This document shows positions 2,202-20,375 of a stretch of 64,000 bases of DNA, piece after piece (within the stretch, counting starts at the first letter, position 1; every line of letters begins with the position of its first letter). Made by a program: the position numbers and the translations under genes. Under the pieces are notes generated by a model that saw only the letters and a program-made list of their open reading frames with translations, did not search any database and was not told the origin of the DNA. Origin of the DNA: Candidatus Aenigmatarchaeota archaeon (GTDB lineage: Archaea > Aenigmatarchaeota > Aenigmatarchaeia > QMZP01); the NCBI GenBank assembly GCA_016185435.1, contig JACPNN010000004.1:73635-137634 (forward strand), in the 5' to 3' direction.

Positions 2202-3356
2202 CTATTTCTCCATCGCAGCCACGCCTTCCCGCATCCTTGACTTGAAGGCCTCTATGTCCTTCACCATGGCCCCTGCTGCCCTCTCATGGCCGCCGCCCAT
2301 GCCGATCCCTTCTGCGGCCTTCTTTATGATGTCACCGATGTCGAAGGCTGCGTGCTGCCATCTGGCAGAGATCTTCCAGCCTCCGGCCGACTTCTTGTAG
2401 ATTGTGATTATATTTTCAGGATAGGTCTTTGCGAGGATGCTGGATATGAGGCTTACGATGTTCAGGGGGGACTGGACCTCGTAAAAGATTATCCTGTTTT
2501 CTGTTTTCTTGTTCTTCTCGAAATCCTTCAATATTGCATCCACTTCATTCTTTACGGATTCATACATGTCGCCAAGCCTTATGTCTGAAACAAAGGAATA
2601 GAAGTCAGGGGCCTTCACCAGGGTTTCAAGGGCGTATTTGGCCCCTGTGAGGCCTTTGGCGGTTATGGCCGCTGAGATGAGCTTGGCTGCGTGGCCTGTC
2701 TTGGAGTCTATTATGCTTTCGTCGAGATCAGTGTCCACCAGATCCTTGAAGCGCTGCCTGTAGTCCTCAAGGAACTGGTTGCAGTCATGTATTGCGTAAT
2801 CAGAGATTACTCCAATAGCTGCGACCCACATGTGCTTCTGGACCATGTAGCCGAGATCCGATAAAAGGTTGTACACAAGGTAGCTTGTCGGCTGGTAGAT
2901 GCTTTTGTTTTCGAATCTGGGATTGATGTGAACAATGTTCTCTGAATTCATATTCTTATCAGGGGTGTGGTGGTCTATAACTACAAATGTTGAGTTCCTC
3001 AGGAGCTTGGACGCCTGCTCAACTTTCCTCCATTCCTGATCCACGGGAAGATCAAGGAAAACAACAACATCAGGCCTTTTTCCGTAGATCCACTTGACAA
3101 AGTCGTCGTCCATCATGGGGCCTTCCCGGGCAAAGGTCTCGAAATGGGGGAAGGCCTTGAGGAAGAGGGCTGCAGAGCTTATGCCGTCGCCGTCCTGGTG
3201 GTAGAAAAGGAGGGGCCTTTTGCTGTTTTCAAAGAGGTCCCTGAGGTTGGGGGCCATGTTATAAGTGGGGGGTGTGGGGTTTATATATGCGCAGTTCCTT
3301 AAGGGATCCACTGCATTGATGTGGAAATATAGTCTATATAACTCGATTTCCAACAT
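2202..3356 (-). CDS. DHH/DHHA1 family phosphoesterase (NrnA-like nanoRNase / pAp phosphatase or RecJ-like)
   Basis: 384 aa. DHH motif (VVIDHHTP) and DHHA1 GGGH motif (GMGGGHERAAG). Confidence 0.8.
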   Translation of the reverse strand: MLEIELYRLYFHINAVDPLRNCAYINPTPPTYNMAPNLRDLFENSKRPLLFYHQDGDGISSAALFLKAFPHFETFAREGPMMDDDFVKWIYGKRPDVVVFLDLPVDQEWRKVEQASKLLRNSTFVVIDHHTPDKNMNSENIVHINPRFENKSIYQPTSYLVYNLLSDLGYMVQKHMWVAAIGVISDYAIHDCNQFLEDYRQRFKDLVDTDLDESIIDSKTGHAAKLISAAITAKGLTGAKYALETLVKAPDFYSFVSDIRLGDMYESVKNEVDAILKDFEKNKKTENRIIFYEVQSPLNIVSLISSILAKTYPENIITIYKKSAGGWKISARWQHAAFDIGDIIKKAAEGIGMGGGHERAAGAMVKDIEAFKSRMREGVAAMEK

Positions 3357-14375: not shown

Positions 14376-17300
14376 ATGCCTGCAATAATTATCAACTTCA
14401 TTATAAACATAAATGTTCCGCCGCCCCCGCCTCCTCCTCCTGGAGGGGGTGAAGGATGGATTGAAGGTCTTGTAAGAGATGAAGGCGGCAGAGCCATTGA
14501 TAATGCAAATGTTATTAATCATACTACTGGAGAACACACCCAGACCAATCATTTAGGCTACTACAGGCTTCCGCAGGATCCGCGAGAAGGTCTGACTCCC
14601 GGCCATCATCTTGTCGCATGCGGAGCAACAGGCTTTGAAGATCAGGAAAGGGAAATTGAGGTGAGACCTGGACGGGCTGCAAACGGCAATTTCACTCTTC
14701 ACAGAAGAACTGGCCGTACTCCGGCTGGCCAAGGTGTTGTCTATGGTCAAGTCTGGATAAAGAATGCGCAGGGAAAGGATGAGCCTTTCATACCCCAAAC
14801 TGAAAGAGTGCCTGACTGGCAGCAAAGGAACAGAATATATGCATATCCCTTAACTCATACCGTCCTTGGCTGGTTTGGGAGGATTCTCCCTGATACCCGT
14901 CTCAATTGGCCAGAAGCTATATCTGAAGGTCATATTGATGAGCATGGAAGATATTCTTTAAGCCTGTTTCCTGGAACCTACCAGCTCGTGTGCAATATCA
15001 CAGATCCACGCCGGGTACAATGGCCCGTAGCTGACTCAAGGAGAGATGCAGCCGGCAATATAATACAGCCACTGCCTCACCACGCTGATCCGTCTTCAGT
15101 GTATGAACCCAAGACAGCCATGGCAACAGTTCGGGCGTATCAAAGAACCAAGCATGACTTCCATTTCTACCCGCAAGGAGGTTCACGGATTGCCAGAGGC
15201 GCAAATACAGCAAGAAACTGGATCGAGCAGAGGTGGGGGGCCGGGATTACAGGGAACATTCACATCATCGCGCTTCTTGCGATAGGCGTCCTCATCTCCA
15301 ACTACTTCCATAACACCAACTTCCTTCTCGGCTTCTGGTCGCTGGTCGCGTACTTCCTGATACCTGAGCCCATACAGGGCAGGCTACAGCAGGAGCTTGA
15401 AGAAGGCCACATGCAGCTGCAGTTTAGGTGGCGGGACTTGGTAATGAGAGGAGAGAACAGAGAGCAGTTCAACAACGCGTGGAGATGGCTGCTTGGCAAC
15501 AACAATTCCCAGTTCACCGCGCTGAGGAGCTTTGCCAAGGTAATGGCCATCTGGTTCTTCAGCCAGGGACTACTGCAGAGCACCTTCGCCTTTTCGAACA
15601 TAATGCTGCTCATAGTGGTCTTTGCAGGATACTATTCCTTTGCCATAGAGTATGACACAAGGAGATCGGGCCAGGTGATAGAGTCATTCTTCAGGTTCGC
15701 CTTCCTAGGCGTGTACCTGATCCCGTGGGTTGTAGTGGCGAGGGTGTTCGATTCTAATGTCCTTGGGCTAATAGCATTTGCGTTTTTGGCCGTACCTCCC
15801 TTTTCGAGAAGGGACCAGCAGCATGAATCCTCAATAGGGTCAGGACTGGAACCGGCGATGAAGGTTGCCTTCCTTATCTGCATGATCATAGCGCTTATGT
15901 ACAGCGGGGCGATGGCCACATTCTTCCCCGAATCCCAGATGTTCCAGACGCAGACAGGTTGGGGGCTTAAGGGAGGCTTGGCAGACACGTTCTTCTTCTT
16001 CTGGTTCCTGACAACGCTGGTCGGGTTCTTTTCACCGCCACAGGAGAGGCCCGCAGCAGGATTCATCATGCTTTTCGCAGCGACTGTCATATATGCGCTT
16101 GGGCCCGGAACCCAGGAGGTGGGGCAGGGGCTGCTCGGGCCTTATTTCCCTGCATTTTACAAAGGCATGATAGGAACAATCAAGCCCGTGACCCAAGCGT
16201 TCTCTGGCTTCGGGAGCGCATTCGGTCCTGCCCTCTGTCTGCTCACCAATCCTGTGGCATGTGCACAGAACATAACTGACGGCAGATGGAGTCAAGATTC
16301 AACTACTGGGATTGCAGGGGCATACGGCGTCGAGCTGGAGGACTTCAGGATGGATGATCAGATATTCACAGAGCAGCCTTTTGCCATCACGCTGAAGCTG
16401 AACAATCTGGGCTCGTTCGATGCGAGGCATGTCGATGTCAGCTTTGCGGCCGGGGAGGATGCGGCAACTATAGAGGAGAGGGAGAGCATGTGGATAAGGC
16501 CGTTCAGATCAAGGCAGGATACAGACAACAAAAGGAAGCGGATGAACCTAGCCGAACTTGGTTTCGGTGACAGGCCTGATGACCCTCAGGGGAAGGAGGG
16601 CCTTGACTGCGTTGAAGACAGCACAGGCGTACCGGTTCTTTGCAGGAGCACCGACCGCATTGATGTCATGGAGAAGAAGGACATACAGCCCATAAGGTTC
16701 GAGAGCAATGATGAAGGGATAAAATGCAGGGCCGTCACCAAATATGAGCTGTATGAAAAGTATCTGCCCTTTGCGGCCAAGGTCTCATATGATTATGGCA
16801 TCTCATCGAGCCTTGATGTAGAGTTCCTCAGCGATGCCGAATGGCGAAGAAAGTCGCAGGCAGAGGAGCTTACTTTCCAACAGAAGATACCCTCCACCCT
16901 TTCGAATTCCCCTGTCATGCTGAATATAGACACTACACCGCAGCCGATAAGGGAGGATGTCTCATTCCCAATCAGGATGCAGCTGAAGACCGGGCCCAGA
17001 GGAGGGACGATAAACAGGACATACATGATAAATGCGGAAATACCGACGGAGCTGTGGAAGGCGAAGAGGTACTGCACACCGTCTCCCTCCAGCGAGACAG
17101 AGATTGCCCAGAAGGGCGTGACACTGGTCAGATGGGAGGAGAGCAGGATACTGCCTTCAAGGACAATCGCATGCCAGTTCAACGGATACAAGTTCCCGAA
17201 GGGCGAAAAGGAGAAAATAGGCGTGCAGCCGACAAAGAGTTTCCTGATAAAGACCAATGCAAGCTACAGGTTCGAGAAGGCGGAGCAGACCATAGGCAAG

Positions 17301-17750
17301 CTGGAATGGGGCGGGGTGGCGTGCTGCTATCCGGCAGGGCAGTACAAAGGGCAGGACGGAGACAAATTCTGCCAGTCCCTTGGATATCCTGCATGCGATG
17401 CAACGACTCATCAATGCAAGGCGGAGGCGCAGACGTGGGGGCCTGCCGATCATTGCAAGAACCAGATAGCGTCAAACCCGAAGGAGAAGTGCAACCTTGG
17501 TGCTGGAGGATGCTCATCGGATGCGGAGTGCTGCTCTGACCCTGCTGATTGCCAGGGCTCTGGAGGGCTGTTTGATGTCGATAGCGATGGAAATCCTGAT
17601 TCTCTGGAATGCAGGAGAAAAATAGCCAATGGCGTCTGCTGCCCTGCAAAGACAAGCGACAATGACTGCGCTGCAGCCCACCAGATGTTCACGGAGAACA
17701 AGAGCCCGGCAGAGGTAAGTGACTTCCTGAGAAAGAATACGGGTCCCTGA
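14376..17750 (+). CDS. Giant (1124 aa) polytopic membrane protein with N-terminal poly-Pro + CarboxypepD_reg-like domain and Cys-rich C-terminal domain
   Basis: PPPPPPPPGGGEGWIEGLVRDEGGRAIDNANVINHTTGEHTQTNHLGYYRLP, then at least 8 predicted TM helices (about aa 290-620), a large hydrophilic domain, and a C-terminus with more than 20 Cys. Confidence 0.6.
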   Translation: MPAIIINFIININVPPPPPPPPGGGEGWIEGLVRDEGGRAIDNANVINHTTGEHTQTNHLGYYRLPQDPREGLTPGHHLVACGATGFEDQEREIEVRPGRAANGNFTLHRRTGRTPAGQGVVYGQVWIKNAQGKDEPFIPQTERVPDWQQRNRIYAYPLTHTVLGWFGRILPDTRLNWPEAISEGHIDEHGRYSLSLFPGTYQLVCNITDPRRVQWPVADSRRDAAGNIIQPLPHHADPSSVYEPKTAMATVRAYQRTKHDFHFYPQGGSRIARGANTARNWIEQRWGAGITGNIHIIALLAIGVLISNYFHNTNFLLGFWSLVAYFLIPEPIQGRLQQELEEGHMQLQFRWRDLVMRGENREQFNNAWRWLLGNNNSQFTALRSFAKVMAIWFFSQGLLQSTFAFSNIMLLIVVFAGYYSFAIEYDTRRSGQVIESFFRFAFLGVYLIPWVVVARVFDSNVLGLIAFAFLAVPPFSRRDQQHESSIGSGLEPAMKVAFLICMIIALMYSGAMATFFPESQMFQTQTGWGLKGGLADTFFFFWFLTTLVGFFSPPQERPAAGFIMLFAATVIYALGPGTQEVGQGLLGPYFPAFYKGMIGTIKPVTQAFSGFGSAFGPALCLLTNPVACAQNITDGRWSQDSTTGIAGAYGVELEDFRMDDQIFTEQPFAITLKLNNLGSFDARHVDVSFAAGEDAATIEERESMWIRPFRSRQDTDNKRKRMNLAELGFGDRPDDPQGKEGLDCVEDSTGVPVLCRSTDRIDVMEKKDIQPIRFESNDEGIKCRAVTKYELYEKYLPFAAKVSYDYGISSSLDVEFLSDAEWRRKSQAEELTFQQKIPSTLSNSPVMLNIDTTPQPIREDVSFPIRMQLKTGPRGGTINRTYMINAEIPTELWKAKRYCTPSPSSETEIAQKGVTLVRWEESRILPSRTIACQFNGYKFPKGEKEKIGVQPTKSFLIKTNASYRFEKAEQTIGKLEWGGVACCYPAGQYKGQDGDKFCQSLGYPACDATTHQCKAEAQTWGPADHCKNQIASNPKEKCNLGAGGCSSDAECCSDPADCQGSGGLFDVDSDGNPDSLECRRKIANGVCCPAKTSDNDCAAAHQMFTENKSPAEVSDFLRKNTGP

Positions 17751-17753
17751 TGC

Positions 17754-18290
17754 CTATGGCAGAGGAGGGCAGTTGCTCTTCGGACGCCTTGCAGCATGCG
17801 TGTCCTCAAAATAGGATGTGATGCCATATTTGCCGTCCACCTTGGTGACGCCTACACCATATCTGCCGTCTTTGACGCCGAGCTGATTGTCTATCTGTAT
17901 GTGCCTCATTTGCTTTAAGCCATTTTCCATAGAGTTAAGTTTTTCCAATACAAAATCGTCTTCGCCTATATAGATTGTGCCTCTGTACTCCCTTTCTCCA
18001 CGGTCTTTCTTGCATCTGTCTGGCTCGATTGTGTTCTCGAAGCCTTCCCAGTACAGGGCGGTTTTCCCAATCGGTCTGCCTGTGTTGGTATCATAGACTT
18101 CCCTCGGGTCGAGTCTTGTGATTGTTATGGGAGTGTTATAGGGGATGAGGGGCGCTCTTGGCCTTGAGCCGAAAGAACCGAAAATGCCTGCCAGGCCAAT
18201 GGCTGTGATAGCGGTGGCGGCGATTATTCCTGTTTTGTATTTTTGGCCAAATGTCTTTGTGCTGTTCCAAGCTGCCTTTAAATTAACCAT
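17754..18290 (-). CDS. Membrane-anchored hypothetical protein
   Basis: 178 aa. N-terminal TM helix IIAATAITAIGLAGIFGSFG. Convergent with the giant membrane protein gene. Confidence 0.4.
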   Translation of the reverse strand: MVNLKAAWNSTKTFGQKYKTGIIAATAITAIGLAGIFGSFGSRPRAPLIPYNTPITITRLDPREVYDTNTGRPIGKTALYWEGFENTIEPDRCKKDRGEREYRGTIYIGEDDFVLEKLNSMENGLKQMRHIQIDNQLGVKDGRYGVGVTKVDGKYGITSYFEDTHAARRPKSNCPPLP

Positions 18291-18336
18291 ATTTTGTCAC
18301 TAATAAGTAGTTTCGAATATATATTTAAATGCTTTT

Positions 18337-19259
18337 TGTGCTATCCCGAATTAGTTAGAGCCTTCCTGTCACTATAAAATACCTCGGCAGGGTATTTATA
18401 GCCTATAGCGCCGCATGGCCTCCTATAGTTCCAGTATCTAACGAACTTACCGTGGTCGCCTTTGGTGACCCATATCTCCGCCTCATAGCAGCCATGGAAA
18501 TTCTCAATCTTGCCGCAGGTAGTCGGTCTCTTTACAGTGCTGTGGATAACCTGCACTCCCTGCTGTTCGCAGAACAGCTCGAAATCTGTCAGCTGTCCGC
18601 TCAGGTTGTTCCTGAACTGGCTGCCGTTGTCTGTCAGTATCTGCTCCGGAGTCCCGTATCTCCTGAAGGCTTGCGCTACAAGCCTTATTGCATTCTCCAT
18701 CGTGGCTTCATCGAACTTCTTTGACGCCGCGACAAACCTCGAATGGTCGTCATAAAACGTCAGCATGGGATTGCCGATCAGCACATCCTTCCAGTCTCCC
18801 TGCCACAGGGACATGCTGTGCTGCCTTTCCCATCGAGTCCTGCCCCATGTCCTTCTTTCCCTGGTTATGGGGCTGTTGAGGTTCTTTTCCTTGATGAGCT
18901 GGTATATGCGGTTATGCGGTATGTGCACCCCATGGTGCACATCGAGATGTCCTTCTATCTTGGTCGGCCCCCAGCGATAGGCTTTCCTCCATATCTGGAT
19001 CCTCCTTGAATCGTTGGCGCCTATGGTGTATCTGGCCTTCGGTCCAGGCTTCCTCTTGTTGACAAGGGAGGCGTACTCGCCTTTGTTTATCCGCAACTTC
19101 CAGAGAAAGTAAGTGCTTTCCGGTATATTCAGCTCTCTCCGTATGTCTATGTCGCTCCAGCCTTCTCTTAGCTTGAGCAGCATCATTGCTATCTTGTTGT
19201 CCCTGTCCATCGAATCACCTCATCCTGTTATAGGTGACTCCAACTAATAGGGATAGCTC
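18337..19259. mobile_element. Insertion sequence (about 923 bp) with a single DDE/rve transposase gene, imperfect terminal IRs and a 16-bp flanking direct repeat
   Basis: Left end TGTGCTATCCCGAATTAGTTAGAG (18337..18360). The right end is its inverted complement GCTATCCCTATTAGTTGGAG (19239..19258). The 16-mer ATATTTAAATGCTTTT occurs directly on both flanks (18321..18336 and 19260..19275). Confidence 0.75.
18341..19210 (-). CDS. DDE transposase, integrase-core (rve) type
   Basis: 289 aa. N-terminal HTH, then an rve-like catalytic core (WQGDW...D...LTDNGSQF...E). Confidence 0.8.
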   Translation of the reverse strand: MDRDNKIAMMLLKLREGWSDIDIRRELNIPESTYFLWKLRINKGEYASLVNKRKPGPKARYTIGANDSRRIQIWRKAYRWGPTKIEGHLDVHHGVHIPHNRIYQLIKEKNLNSPITRERRTWGRTRWERQHSMSLWQGDWKDVLIGNPMLTFYDDHSRFVAASKKFDEATMENAIRLVAQAFRRYGTPEQILTDNGSQFRNNLSGQLTDFELFCEQQGVQVIHSTVKRPTTCGKIENFHGCYEAEIWVTKGDHGKFVRYWNYRRPCGAIGYKYPAEVFYSDRKALTNSG

Positions 19260-19657
19260 ATATTTAAATGCTTTTCGGTACCGGAAAGGCAGAATTCTGG
19301 ATTTGCTCTTCTCCTGAATGTAACAAATAATCTGCATTTATGCAATCGCAGGATAGTGATTTTCTTTTTCCTGTTTTCTGTTTTCGGAAGAATGAAAGAA
19401 AACAAGAGTATAGAGTCTTTATTGCATCGAAATTGTCAATAGAATCAGGGATAAGAAAGTCCGGCTTTATGAAGATGCTGAAAAGCCTATGGTGTGTTCA
19501 GCGCCTCACCGGCCTTCAAAGCTTCTTCAGGCGTGATGGAAGCGTAATACAGGAGGGCTATGAAAAGGAGGATGAGGGAAGCGATGATGGCCATCCATAT
19601 GCTTCTGGGGATTTTGGGAAAGTTCATATATGTATATTTGTTGGAATTAGTTAAAAT

Positions 19658-20233
19658 CTAAGCACTTTCCTTGGCAGTTACAACACTTTCTGATTTCTGC
19701 CCTAAGCCAAGCAGTTCCCTGTATCCGGCCTCCACTGGATCGCCTGGGCTCAGGCTGCCTGCATAGCTGTCGAATGCGCCTTTTGTCTGATATGCCAATT
19801 GGCCGACTAGTACCATGTCGTTGTGGCTTGCCTTGCCTGCAAGCTTTTTCAGGCCGGCAAAGGTCTTATAAATGACTTCATTGCCCTCTGAAAGGGCCTG
19901 CAGCCTTTCCCATTCTTTCTGCTTTTTAAAGTCTATGAAAGTGTCATTGCTACCGCCACGGAAAGGAACCCAGAGCCCCCATTTGTATCCGTCTCCCACA
20001 AGGCGATTAGCCAAAAGCTGCGAGAAAGGGGCGGCATACAATGTCCCTCCCTTCACAAAGCAGATAACGCCAGCATTGGCGCCATATGTTCTCTCAAGGT
20101 CGTGCAGATCGCTATAGTCGCTGGGAGGCTTTACTTGATATTCCTGCCAAGTTTCGTCGCCATGAAAATGTGTTCTGAGCTTTTCCCTGAAATTCCTTCT
20201 CACTATCGGAATGGCAGTGTTTTCCAGAGACAT
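19658..20233 (-). CDS. Hypothetical protein
   Basis: 191-aa ORF with coherent codon usage. No recognisable motif. Confidence 0.4.
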   Translation of the reverse strand: MSLENTAIPIVRRNFREKLRTHFHGDETWQEYQVKPPSDYSDLHDLERTYGANAGVICFVKGGTLYAAPFSQLLANRLVGDGYKWGLWVPFRGGSNDTFIDFKKQKEWERLQALSEGNEVIYKTFAGLKKLAGKASHNDMVLVGQLAYQTKGAFDSYAGSLSPGDPVEAGYRELLGLGQKSESVVTAKESA

Positions 20234-20375
20234 AGTATCACTTTTACTATTAGATGGTGATACTATATTTATAAGCTTTTTGGTGGGAGGTTTCAGGGTT
20301 GAAAAGTGGCTATAGATATCTGTATAACAATGTTATATTCCAGCAATCAACTTTAAATTCCTGTGCCGCCCCATC

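Follow-up and report, generated by a model that had tools for sequence, protein, structure and literature searches.

Where does a mobile element end, and where does the DNA that received it begin? This question is raised by a short transposase-bearing segment in a Candidatus Aenigmarchaeota (DPANN) genome, within a 64,000-nt stretch of GenBank assembly GCA_016185435.1 (contig JACPNN010000004.1, positions 73,635-137,634) that we call the window and whose own numbering is used throughout. The 16-mer ATATTTAAATGCTTTT stands exactly at 18321-18336 and again, in direct orientation, at 19260-19275, and a sequence-only reading of the window had proposed that the two copies flank a compact 923-bp insertion sequence (IS) with a DDE/rve transposase and imperfect terminal inverted repeats (IRs), the 16 bp being an unusually long target-site duplication (TSD). 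Is the 16-mer a duplicated target, and if so, do all sixteen bases belong to it? To which family does the element belong, and is it still intact? Our answer, which we hold with high confidence, is that the whole feature is an intact 924-bp IS of a divergent archaeal subclade of the IS481 family, flanked by a TSD of 15 bp. Its boundaries, the TSD length across its relatives, its family affinity and the promoter-like nature of its target were all observed or computed in the analysis described here.

Element ends and the length of the flanking duplication

The features on which the argument rests are the following, with IRL and IRR denoting the left and right IRs.

18337..19260, minus strand: complete IS, 924 bp, with TG...CA termini; the flanks of close relatives diverge exactly there
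18322..18336, no strand assigned: TSD beside IRR, TATTTAAATGCTTTT, 15 bp
19261..19275, no strand assigned: TSD beside IRL, TATTTAAATGCTTTT, 15 bp
19237..19260, minus strand: IRL, upstream of the transposase gene, TGAGCTATCCCTATTAGTTGGAGT, a pattern kept at the left ends of relatives
18337..18360, plus strand: IRR, at the 3' end of the gene, reading inward TGTGCTATCCCGAATTAGTTAGAG and coding for the C-terminal ...TNSG and stop codon

On the plus strand of the window the element's ends read TGTGC... and ...GCTCA; written along the transposase gene, the orientation in which we also give the termini and duplications of relatives, it starts TGAGCTATCCC and finishes GGGATAGCACA. Two stand-alone repeat contigs (L012 and L020) have TGAGC as their first bases and CACA as their last, matching the ends that we assign. 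A repeat finder resolved the imperfect IRs into two blocks with a 1-base offset (18337-18347/19250-19260 and 18350-18360/19238-19248), the first of which (TGTGCTATCCC / GGGATAGCTCA) pairs base 18337 with base 19260, the very base with which the right-hand 16-mer begins. Compared by eye (TGTGCTATCCCGAATTAGTTAGAG against TGAGCTATCCC-TATTAGTTGGAG), 20 of the 24 columns of the terminal repeats match, 3 are mismatched and 1 is an indel, so that the imperfect IRs of the earlier description stand. TG/CA is found at both ends and the full TGT at only one (IRR, TGTGCTATCCC; IRL, TGAGCTATCCC); some relatives, for example L022 and L028, carry TGT at both. All six close-clade elements compared share the same arrangement, that is, an IRL of TGAGCTATCCC-TATTAGTTG..., an IRR of TGTGCTATCCTGAATTAATTG... 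and the same 1-nt offset caused by an extra base in IRR. The inner repeat block varies among elements (GGAG, GCAC, GGAC or GCAG), yet it agrees between the two ends of each element. IRR doubles as coding sequence in the clade, specifying a conserved C-terminal (I/T)NSG and the stop codon.

How long, then, is the duplication? The exact 16-mer has no third copy in the window, and when up to two mismatches are allowed, 3 matches are found where 0.16 would be expected, a count that none of 100 shuffles reached. The length was decided by relatives. Our close-clade set consists of ten independent insertions, i.e. the window element and relatives at L003, L004, L018, L022, L048, L050, L065, L073 and L077 with 48-71% amino acid identity, and duplication lengths were counted with the ends anchored on TG...CA (L065 was read by eye). 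The duplication is exactly 15 bp in all ten, with the same termini and with duplicated sequences that are unrelated to one another. For example, one relative (P0013, 66% identical) sits at two different sites, in both cases ending TGAGCTATCCC...GGGATAGCACA, and is flanked by CTATATTTTCTAAGC at L003 and by ATGTATGCAAAGATT at L004. The remaining duplications are TTGCAAGATTTTCCG (L018), AGATTAATGATTAAC (L022), CTTGAAAAAAAAGGC (L048), CCTCTTTTTCCAGTG (L050), ATTAAACTATTGCTT (L065), CATCCATGAAGCATT (L073) and CACGATACGGAAGTA (L077). A T precedes GAGC in every one of the ten insertions, and the base that follows the downstream repeat is T in only five (the window, L003, L004, L022 and L073), being C, C, G, A and G in L018, L048, L050, L065 and L077, respectively. 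Because the T before GAGC is constant while the downstream base varies, the T is to be read as the element's first base, a counterpart to the T of TGTGC at the opposite end. Judging from these alignments, the sixteenth matching base is a terminal base of the element that coincides by chance with the target base coming next. In other words, the long duplication of the sequence-only reading is real and long, at 15 bp rather than 16, and its own caution that the ends might be defined differently was justified by a single base, the element measuring 924 bp and not 923.

Many short metagenome contigs that carry relatives show no duplication at all. Those of P0013 and P0083 with mismatched flanks (L005-L008 and L075) are demonstrably recombined from two known insertion sites: here, and also in a contig carrying P0011 (L019), the left flank of one known site is joined to the right flank of another. 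In such contigs either the assembly passed from one IS copy into another or the copies truly recombined, and we have not counted them against the TSD. Another variant is a 634-bp 5'-deleted copy (L065:1176-1830, also L066), on a contig of 330 kb, in which IRL is cut down to its first 7 nt (TGAGCTA), followed directly by the transposase gene from about codon 85 onward, and the 15-bp duplication ATTAAACTATTGCTT is intact.

Transposase and family affinity

The protein-coding content of the element is simple.

18341..19210, minus strand: transposase gene, 289 aa, with helix-turn-helix (HTH) domains and an rve (RNase H-fold) DDE core; the sole long open reading frame (ORF) inside the element
19214..19221, minus strand: Shine-Dalgarno-like GAGGTGAT, 3 nt upstream of the transposase ATG; read from the sequence and putative in function

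The 289-aa ORF occupies 870 of the 924 bp as a single frame with no programmed frameshift, and its stop codon, TAG, falls 4 bp short of the IS end, inside the terminal repeat. An equivalent GAGGTG lies ahead of the transposase in relatives. The DDE/rve assignment made from the sequence is borne out by Pfam, which finds rve at residues 131-229 (E=7.9e-15), with HTH_32 and HTH_23 N-terminal to it. Across 18 aligned homologs three acidic residues never vary, namely D139 (WQGDWKD), D194 (LTDNGSQF) and E236 (GKIENFH), and we take them to be the DDE triad from what is known of the IS3 and IS481 motifs. When the PDB was searched with a profile of the family, the matches included the catalytic cores of retroviral integrases.

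Among NCBIfam families the best for the window protein, by a large margin, is IS481 (model NF033577, 284 positions, curated cut-off 224 bits), which is matched with 151 bits (E=3.5e-44) over profile positions 2-284. This coverage, together with the lengths of about 296-300 aa of ISA0963-type transposases, does not sustain the earlier impression that 289 aa is short for such an enzyme. IS481 scores climb stepwise from the window protein (151) through P0013 (159), P0083 (178) and P0102 (198) to the transposase of Geoglobus acetivorans (237), which passes the cut-off and is 33% identical to the window protein over 274 aa. The sub-threshold score thus appears to mark a divergent archaeal subclade of IS481, found in Aenigmatarchaeota, Bathyarchaeia and Hadarchaeota. 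Two other families were considered and rejected: IS3, for which the protein scores 58 bits against a cut-off of 160 and with which the single ORF and 15-bp TSD are at odds, and IS1202 (ISNCY), on its architecture and on an ISNCY_2 score of 36 bits, with partial coverage, against a cut-off of 250. Element lengths are 924 bp in the window, 925-939 bp in close relatives, 924-950 bp in Bathyarchaeia relatives and 966 bp in Geoglobus.

The identical protein is annotated in a Candidatus Aenigmarchaeota metagenome-assembled genome (MAG), and the same locus is present in several Logan assemblies. Beyond it, metagenomes yielded about 100 homologs of 281-308 aa with 46-71% identity, the nearest non-self protein being 71% identical and unnamed. 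In a survey of one genome per GTDB species, all 24 loci were archaeal (2 Aenigmatarchaeota, about 19 Bathyarchaeia/Bathyarchaeota, 2 Hadarchaeota and 1 Nitrososphaerota). Dozens of homologs (among P0003-P0040) lie on contigs of 925-950 bp that are essentially the IS alone, as is typical of collapsed multi-copy repeats. These observations suggest that many archaea of groundwater and sediment carry members of the clade in multiple copies, presumably active ones. At L019, beside the P0011 element that lacks a TSD, a gene at 2627-3220 encodes sigma-70 region 2 and region 4 domains, i.e. a bacterial-type extracytoplasmic function (ECF) sigma factor; either two sequences have been joined at the IS into a chimeric contig, or the archaeal-looking IS clade also occurs in a bacterium. 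The Geoglobus acetivorans element, for its part, lies 15 nt from a tRNA-Phe gene (L071:1724-1828, the gene at 1754-1828 on the minus strand).

Mobility, boundaries and the site of insertion

A number of observations weigh against the reading of the feature as an intact IS481 element with a 15-bp TSD. Its score of 151 bits lies below the curated cut-off of 224, and its length of 924 bp is slightly below the 950-1300 bp usual for IS481 elements in ISfinder. IRL begins TGA rather than the canonical TGT. The TSD is unambiguously 16 bp in two of the eight Bathyarchaeia relatives (L023 and L032), so the stagger is not strictly fixed in the wider clade. Further copies in the genome were not found, a protein of 100% identity being present only at this locus, so that this particular copy is at most putatively mobile, and an empty site was not found in any of the eight contigs searched. 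Additionally, the pathway of transposition and the use of a duplicated TATA box, both discussed below, are matters that we infer rather than observe.

These eight contigs bring in the neighboring gene, to which several later points refer.

17754..18290, minus strand: 178-aa orphan gene outside the IS, with its start codon 46 bp from the IS, which lies in its promoter region

What, then, if the element is intact in form and yet stranded, a relic that no longer moves? This possibility, which accepts the IS481 identification and denies present activity, is one that we consider unlikely while giving it some weight. It is favored by the lack of a second copy, both in the window and in each contig that carries the protein, by the presence of the IS junction in all eight contigs that encode the 178-aa neighbor (from several samples), and by an additional mismatch in the inner block of the window IRR, TTAGAG, where relatives have TTGGAG. 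A search of the window by IR pattern, blastn and tblastn found no second copy, solo end or fragment, and the string expected for an empty site, CCG-AAAAGCATTTAAATA-TATATTCG on the minus strand, occurred in 0 of the 8 contigs. Nor did the neighboring gene lead to a related strain for comparison: among 5.8 billion proteins, the only homolog found of the 178-aa neighbor was itself. Against stranding speak the full-length ORF, the retention of all family-invariant residues and a TSD that is perfect at 15 of 15 positions, and the clade as a whole appears active, given the many matches on contigs of about 925-950 bp. The sequence-only reading had held that a lone copy with degenerate IRs would suggest decay; the copy is indeed alone as far as was found, but the IR imperfections, including the 1-nt indel, appear to be a family trait and not decay because the same asymmetry recurs in relatives. 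As for flanks, the close-clade relatives each have their own unrelated 15-bp repeat.

A second alternative keeps the boundaries first proposed, 18337..19259, and with them a 923-bp element and a true 16-bp duplication. The 16-mer is, after all, exact on both sides, at least 16 bases also match at L003, L004, L022 and L073, and at L023 and L032 in Bathyarchaeia, 16 bp lie outside intact TG...CA ends. Those two belong to a set of eight Bathyarchaeia relatives (about 40% identity, 924-950 bp, ends TGAGCTATCC/TGTTCTATCC) whose duplications measure 14, 14, 14, 15, 15, 15, 16 and 16 bp. For the window element we nonetheless find this very improbable. The T in dispute is the one whose constancy before GAGC, set against a downstream T in only half of the close-clade insertions, was described above, and it aligns both with the T of TGTGC at the opposite end and with the TG ends of the Bathyarchaeia and Geoglobus relatives. 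An apparent 17-bp repeat at L073 is equally trivial, arising from chance matches at both ends; a second insertion of the identical element, at L077, gives 15 bp.

With the 15-bp duplication of the preferred reading in hand, one can ask what the element landed in. Read on the minus strand, the 15-mer is AAAAGCATTTAAATA, which includes TTTAAATA, and the 16-mer contains the palindrome ATTTAAAT. The archaeal TATA-box consensus is TTTAWATA, which TTTAAATA fits. For the 178-aa gene, the IRR-side copy (18322-18329, minus strand) is 39 nt upstream of the ATG; for the transposase gene, the IRL-side copy (19261-19268, minus strand) is 58 nt upstream. In the window TTTAWATA occurs 14 times where 4.5 would be expected, an enrichment of about 3-fold and a count that no shuffle reached, and 7 of the 12 other copies precede a long ORF of the same strand, 23-42 nt upstream of its ATG. 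The sole near-match to the 16-mer in the window, AAAAGCTTATAAATAT at 20265-20280 (minus strand, 2 mismatches), stands in front of the next gene (19658-20233, 191 aa), 41 nt upstream of its ATG, and the sequence there resembles a shared promoter layout of B recognition element (BRE) and TATA box with a GTGA(T) Shine-Dalgarno-like element. We conclude that the IS probably landed in the predicted BRE/TATA promoter element of the 178-aa gene and that the 15-bp stagger duplicated that element whole.

The notion that the 16-mer is instead a recognition or attachment site, palindromic (ATTTAAAT) and either targeted or carried along, can be set aside as extremely unlikely, for although it could point to the palindrome and to the similar 16-mer 1 kb away, no consensus emerges from the 19 target sites reconstructed for relatives, none of which repeats the 16-mer, and the similar sequence at 20265 is itself a promoter element, belonging to a different gene and with the same spacing to the ATG. 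Thus, neither the palindromic site once suggested as the target nor a fixed sequence accompanying the element is seen, the duplications of relatives being unrelated. A general targeting of TATA boxes or palindromes was likewise considered and rejected on the same 19 targets. TATA-like boxes occur within ±40 nt at 7 of these sites, an excess that is not clear against a background of about 0.31 per 100 nt, and the close-clade duplications are only moderately richer in AT than their flanks.

Two observations concern the neighborhood. The 178-aa protein has a hydrophobic N-terminal stretch, and convergent to its gene runs a 1124-aa ORF (14376-17750, plus strand) with a poly-proline start, a Cys-rich C-terminus and CarboxypepD_reg Pfam matches in a contig look-up.

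Known systems, possible mechanism and meaning

How unusual is such an element? TSDs of IS481 members range from 2 to 15 bp, with 6 bp in most and about 15 bp in "not a few", among them the archaeal ISMac4 and ISA0963-1, both at 15 bp (Kojima 2023, PMC10045372). The duplication in the window, which had been thought unusual in length, is therefore of a kind already known for archaeal IS481 (PMC10045372), and the Geoglobus element also has 15 bp. Indeed, IS481, its eukaryotic counterpart IS481EU and IS1202 fall into discrete TSD classes of about 4-6, 15 and 25 bp, one turn of B-DNA apart (PMC10045372), and the window element belongs to the middle class. TGT ends are common to IS3, IS481 and IS1202 (bioRxiv 10.1101/2022.12.17.520857).

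The nearest counterparts are ISA0963-1 of Archaeoglobus, ISMac4 of Methanosarcina and the Geoglobus acetivorans element at L071, the first two likened here by their published descriptions. Like the window element, they have a single HTH plus rve ORF of about 290-300 aa, a length of about 0.92-0.97 kb, TG...CA ends and a 15-bp TSD; ISA0963-type transposases, of about 296 aa, share all three domains of the window protein (PMC5126054). The Geoglobus element (966 bp, TGTAGTATCC at both ends, a 15-bp TSD and a score above the curated cut-off) also shares the terminal motif TATCC with the window, as TGTAGTATCCC and TGAGCTATCCC, respectively. It differs in that the window protein is only 33% identical and scores 151 rather than 237 bits, and in that the window element is about 40 bp shorter, begins TGA rather than TGT at IRL and has its stop codon inside IRR. 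The hosts differ as well, being DPANN and Bathyarchaeia for the window clade and Euryarchaeota for the other three. Thus, for archaeal IS481 the long duplication and the TG ends are already catalogued, as are a length near 0.95 kb and a transposase near 290 aa, and what is particular to the window element is its profile divergence, the DPANN/Bathyarchaeia hosts, the TGA at IRL, its greater compactness and the stop codon inside IRR.

More distant systems share part of this design. The bacterial majority of IS481 elements likewise measures about 1 kb, encodes an rve DDE transposase with no frameshift and has short IRs that end in TG(T), and differs in TSDs that are mostly 6 bp (PMC10045372), about one helical turn less than the 15 bp of the window clade. 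The IS481EU/Banshee elements of parabasalids have an IS481-like transposase, TGT...ACA termini and 15-16-bp TSDs, and trees place them near ISMac4 and ISA0963-1 (PMC10045372); they are eukaryotic, however, and their single families mix TSDs of 4, 15 and 24 bp, in contrast to the uniform 15 bp of the close clade. The ISTde1 subgroup of IS1202 resembles the window element in its TSD of 15-17 bp (PMC10045372), its TGT ends and a distantly related DDE domain. IS3 has an rve core and TG...CA ends, as in the window, and differs in its two ORFs joined by a programmed -1 frameshift and its TSD of 3-5 bp. The transposase and the whole element of IS1202 are much larger than those of the window.

IS3, for which transposition by copy-out-paste-in has been established, is also the likely mechanistic model. 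By established DDE chemistry, an rve/DDE enzyme together with a constant 15-bp duplication of arbitrary sequence implies 3'-OH attack at positions 15 bp apart. The transposase would be expected to bind the terminal repeats of about 24 bp, cut the element at its conserved TG...CA termini and link both 3'-OH ends to target phosphates with a 15-bp stagger between them; once the gaps were repaired, the 15-bp direct repeat would result. The element may travel by copy-out-paste-in through a circle, as its IS3 and IS1202 relatives suggest, circles having been observed for an IS1202 member (bioRxiv 10.1101/2022.12.17.520857).

What would such an insertion mean for the genes on either side? Because the stagger is long, the TATA box has been duplicated in full, such that one copy could keep serving the 178-aa host gene with its promoter intact, while the other would face into the IS at a spacing able to drive the transposase gene, whose own upstream region, from IS end to ATG, is only 50 bp. 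With a start about 30 nt from the beginning of the box, as the spacing at other genes suggests, the transcript would begin at about IS positions 22-25, upstream of GAGGTGAT, and the transposase gene may in this way have captured a promoter. A bolder proposal is that the clade has no promoter of its own (its leader is 50 bp with a conserved Shine-Dalgarno element and no convincing internal TATA box) and relies on the 15-bp stagger to duplicate BRE/TATA elements, in which case the longer TSD would be an adaptation to archaeal promoters and not a neutral quirk. Drawn from the window copy alone, this proposal strikes us as quite improbable; if it were true, duplication of the promoter would preserve that of the host gene, lowering the cost of insertion, at the same time as the transposase gained one.

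Taken alone, the element is of little significance, adding an unnamed, divergent IS481-type member from a DPANN archaeon. As part of an archaeal subclade (Aenigmatarchaeota, Bathyarchaeia, Hadarchaeota and Nitrososphaerota), it extends to these hosts the stagger of about 15 bp known for ISMac4 and ISA0963-1. Curated IS481 models miss this clade (151-198 bits against the required 224), and as a result MAG annotation offers only a generic "transposase" or "DDE-type integrase/transposase/recombinase". For those who meet such elements in genomic data, seeming repeats of 16-17 bp are 15-bp duplications lengthened by chance matches to the terminal bases of the IS. More broadly, their consistent 15-bp class makes these small transposases a sensible choice for asking a question that is already in the literature, namely how the two strand transfers of an integrase-like enzyme come to be set one helical turn wider.

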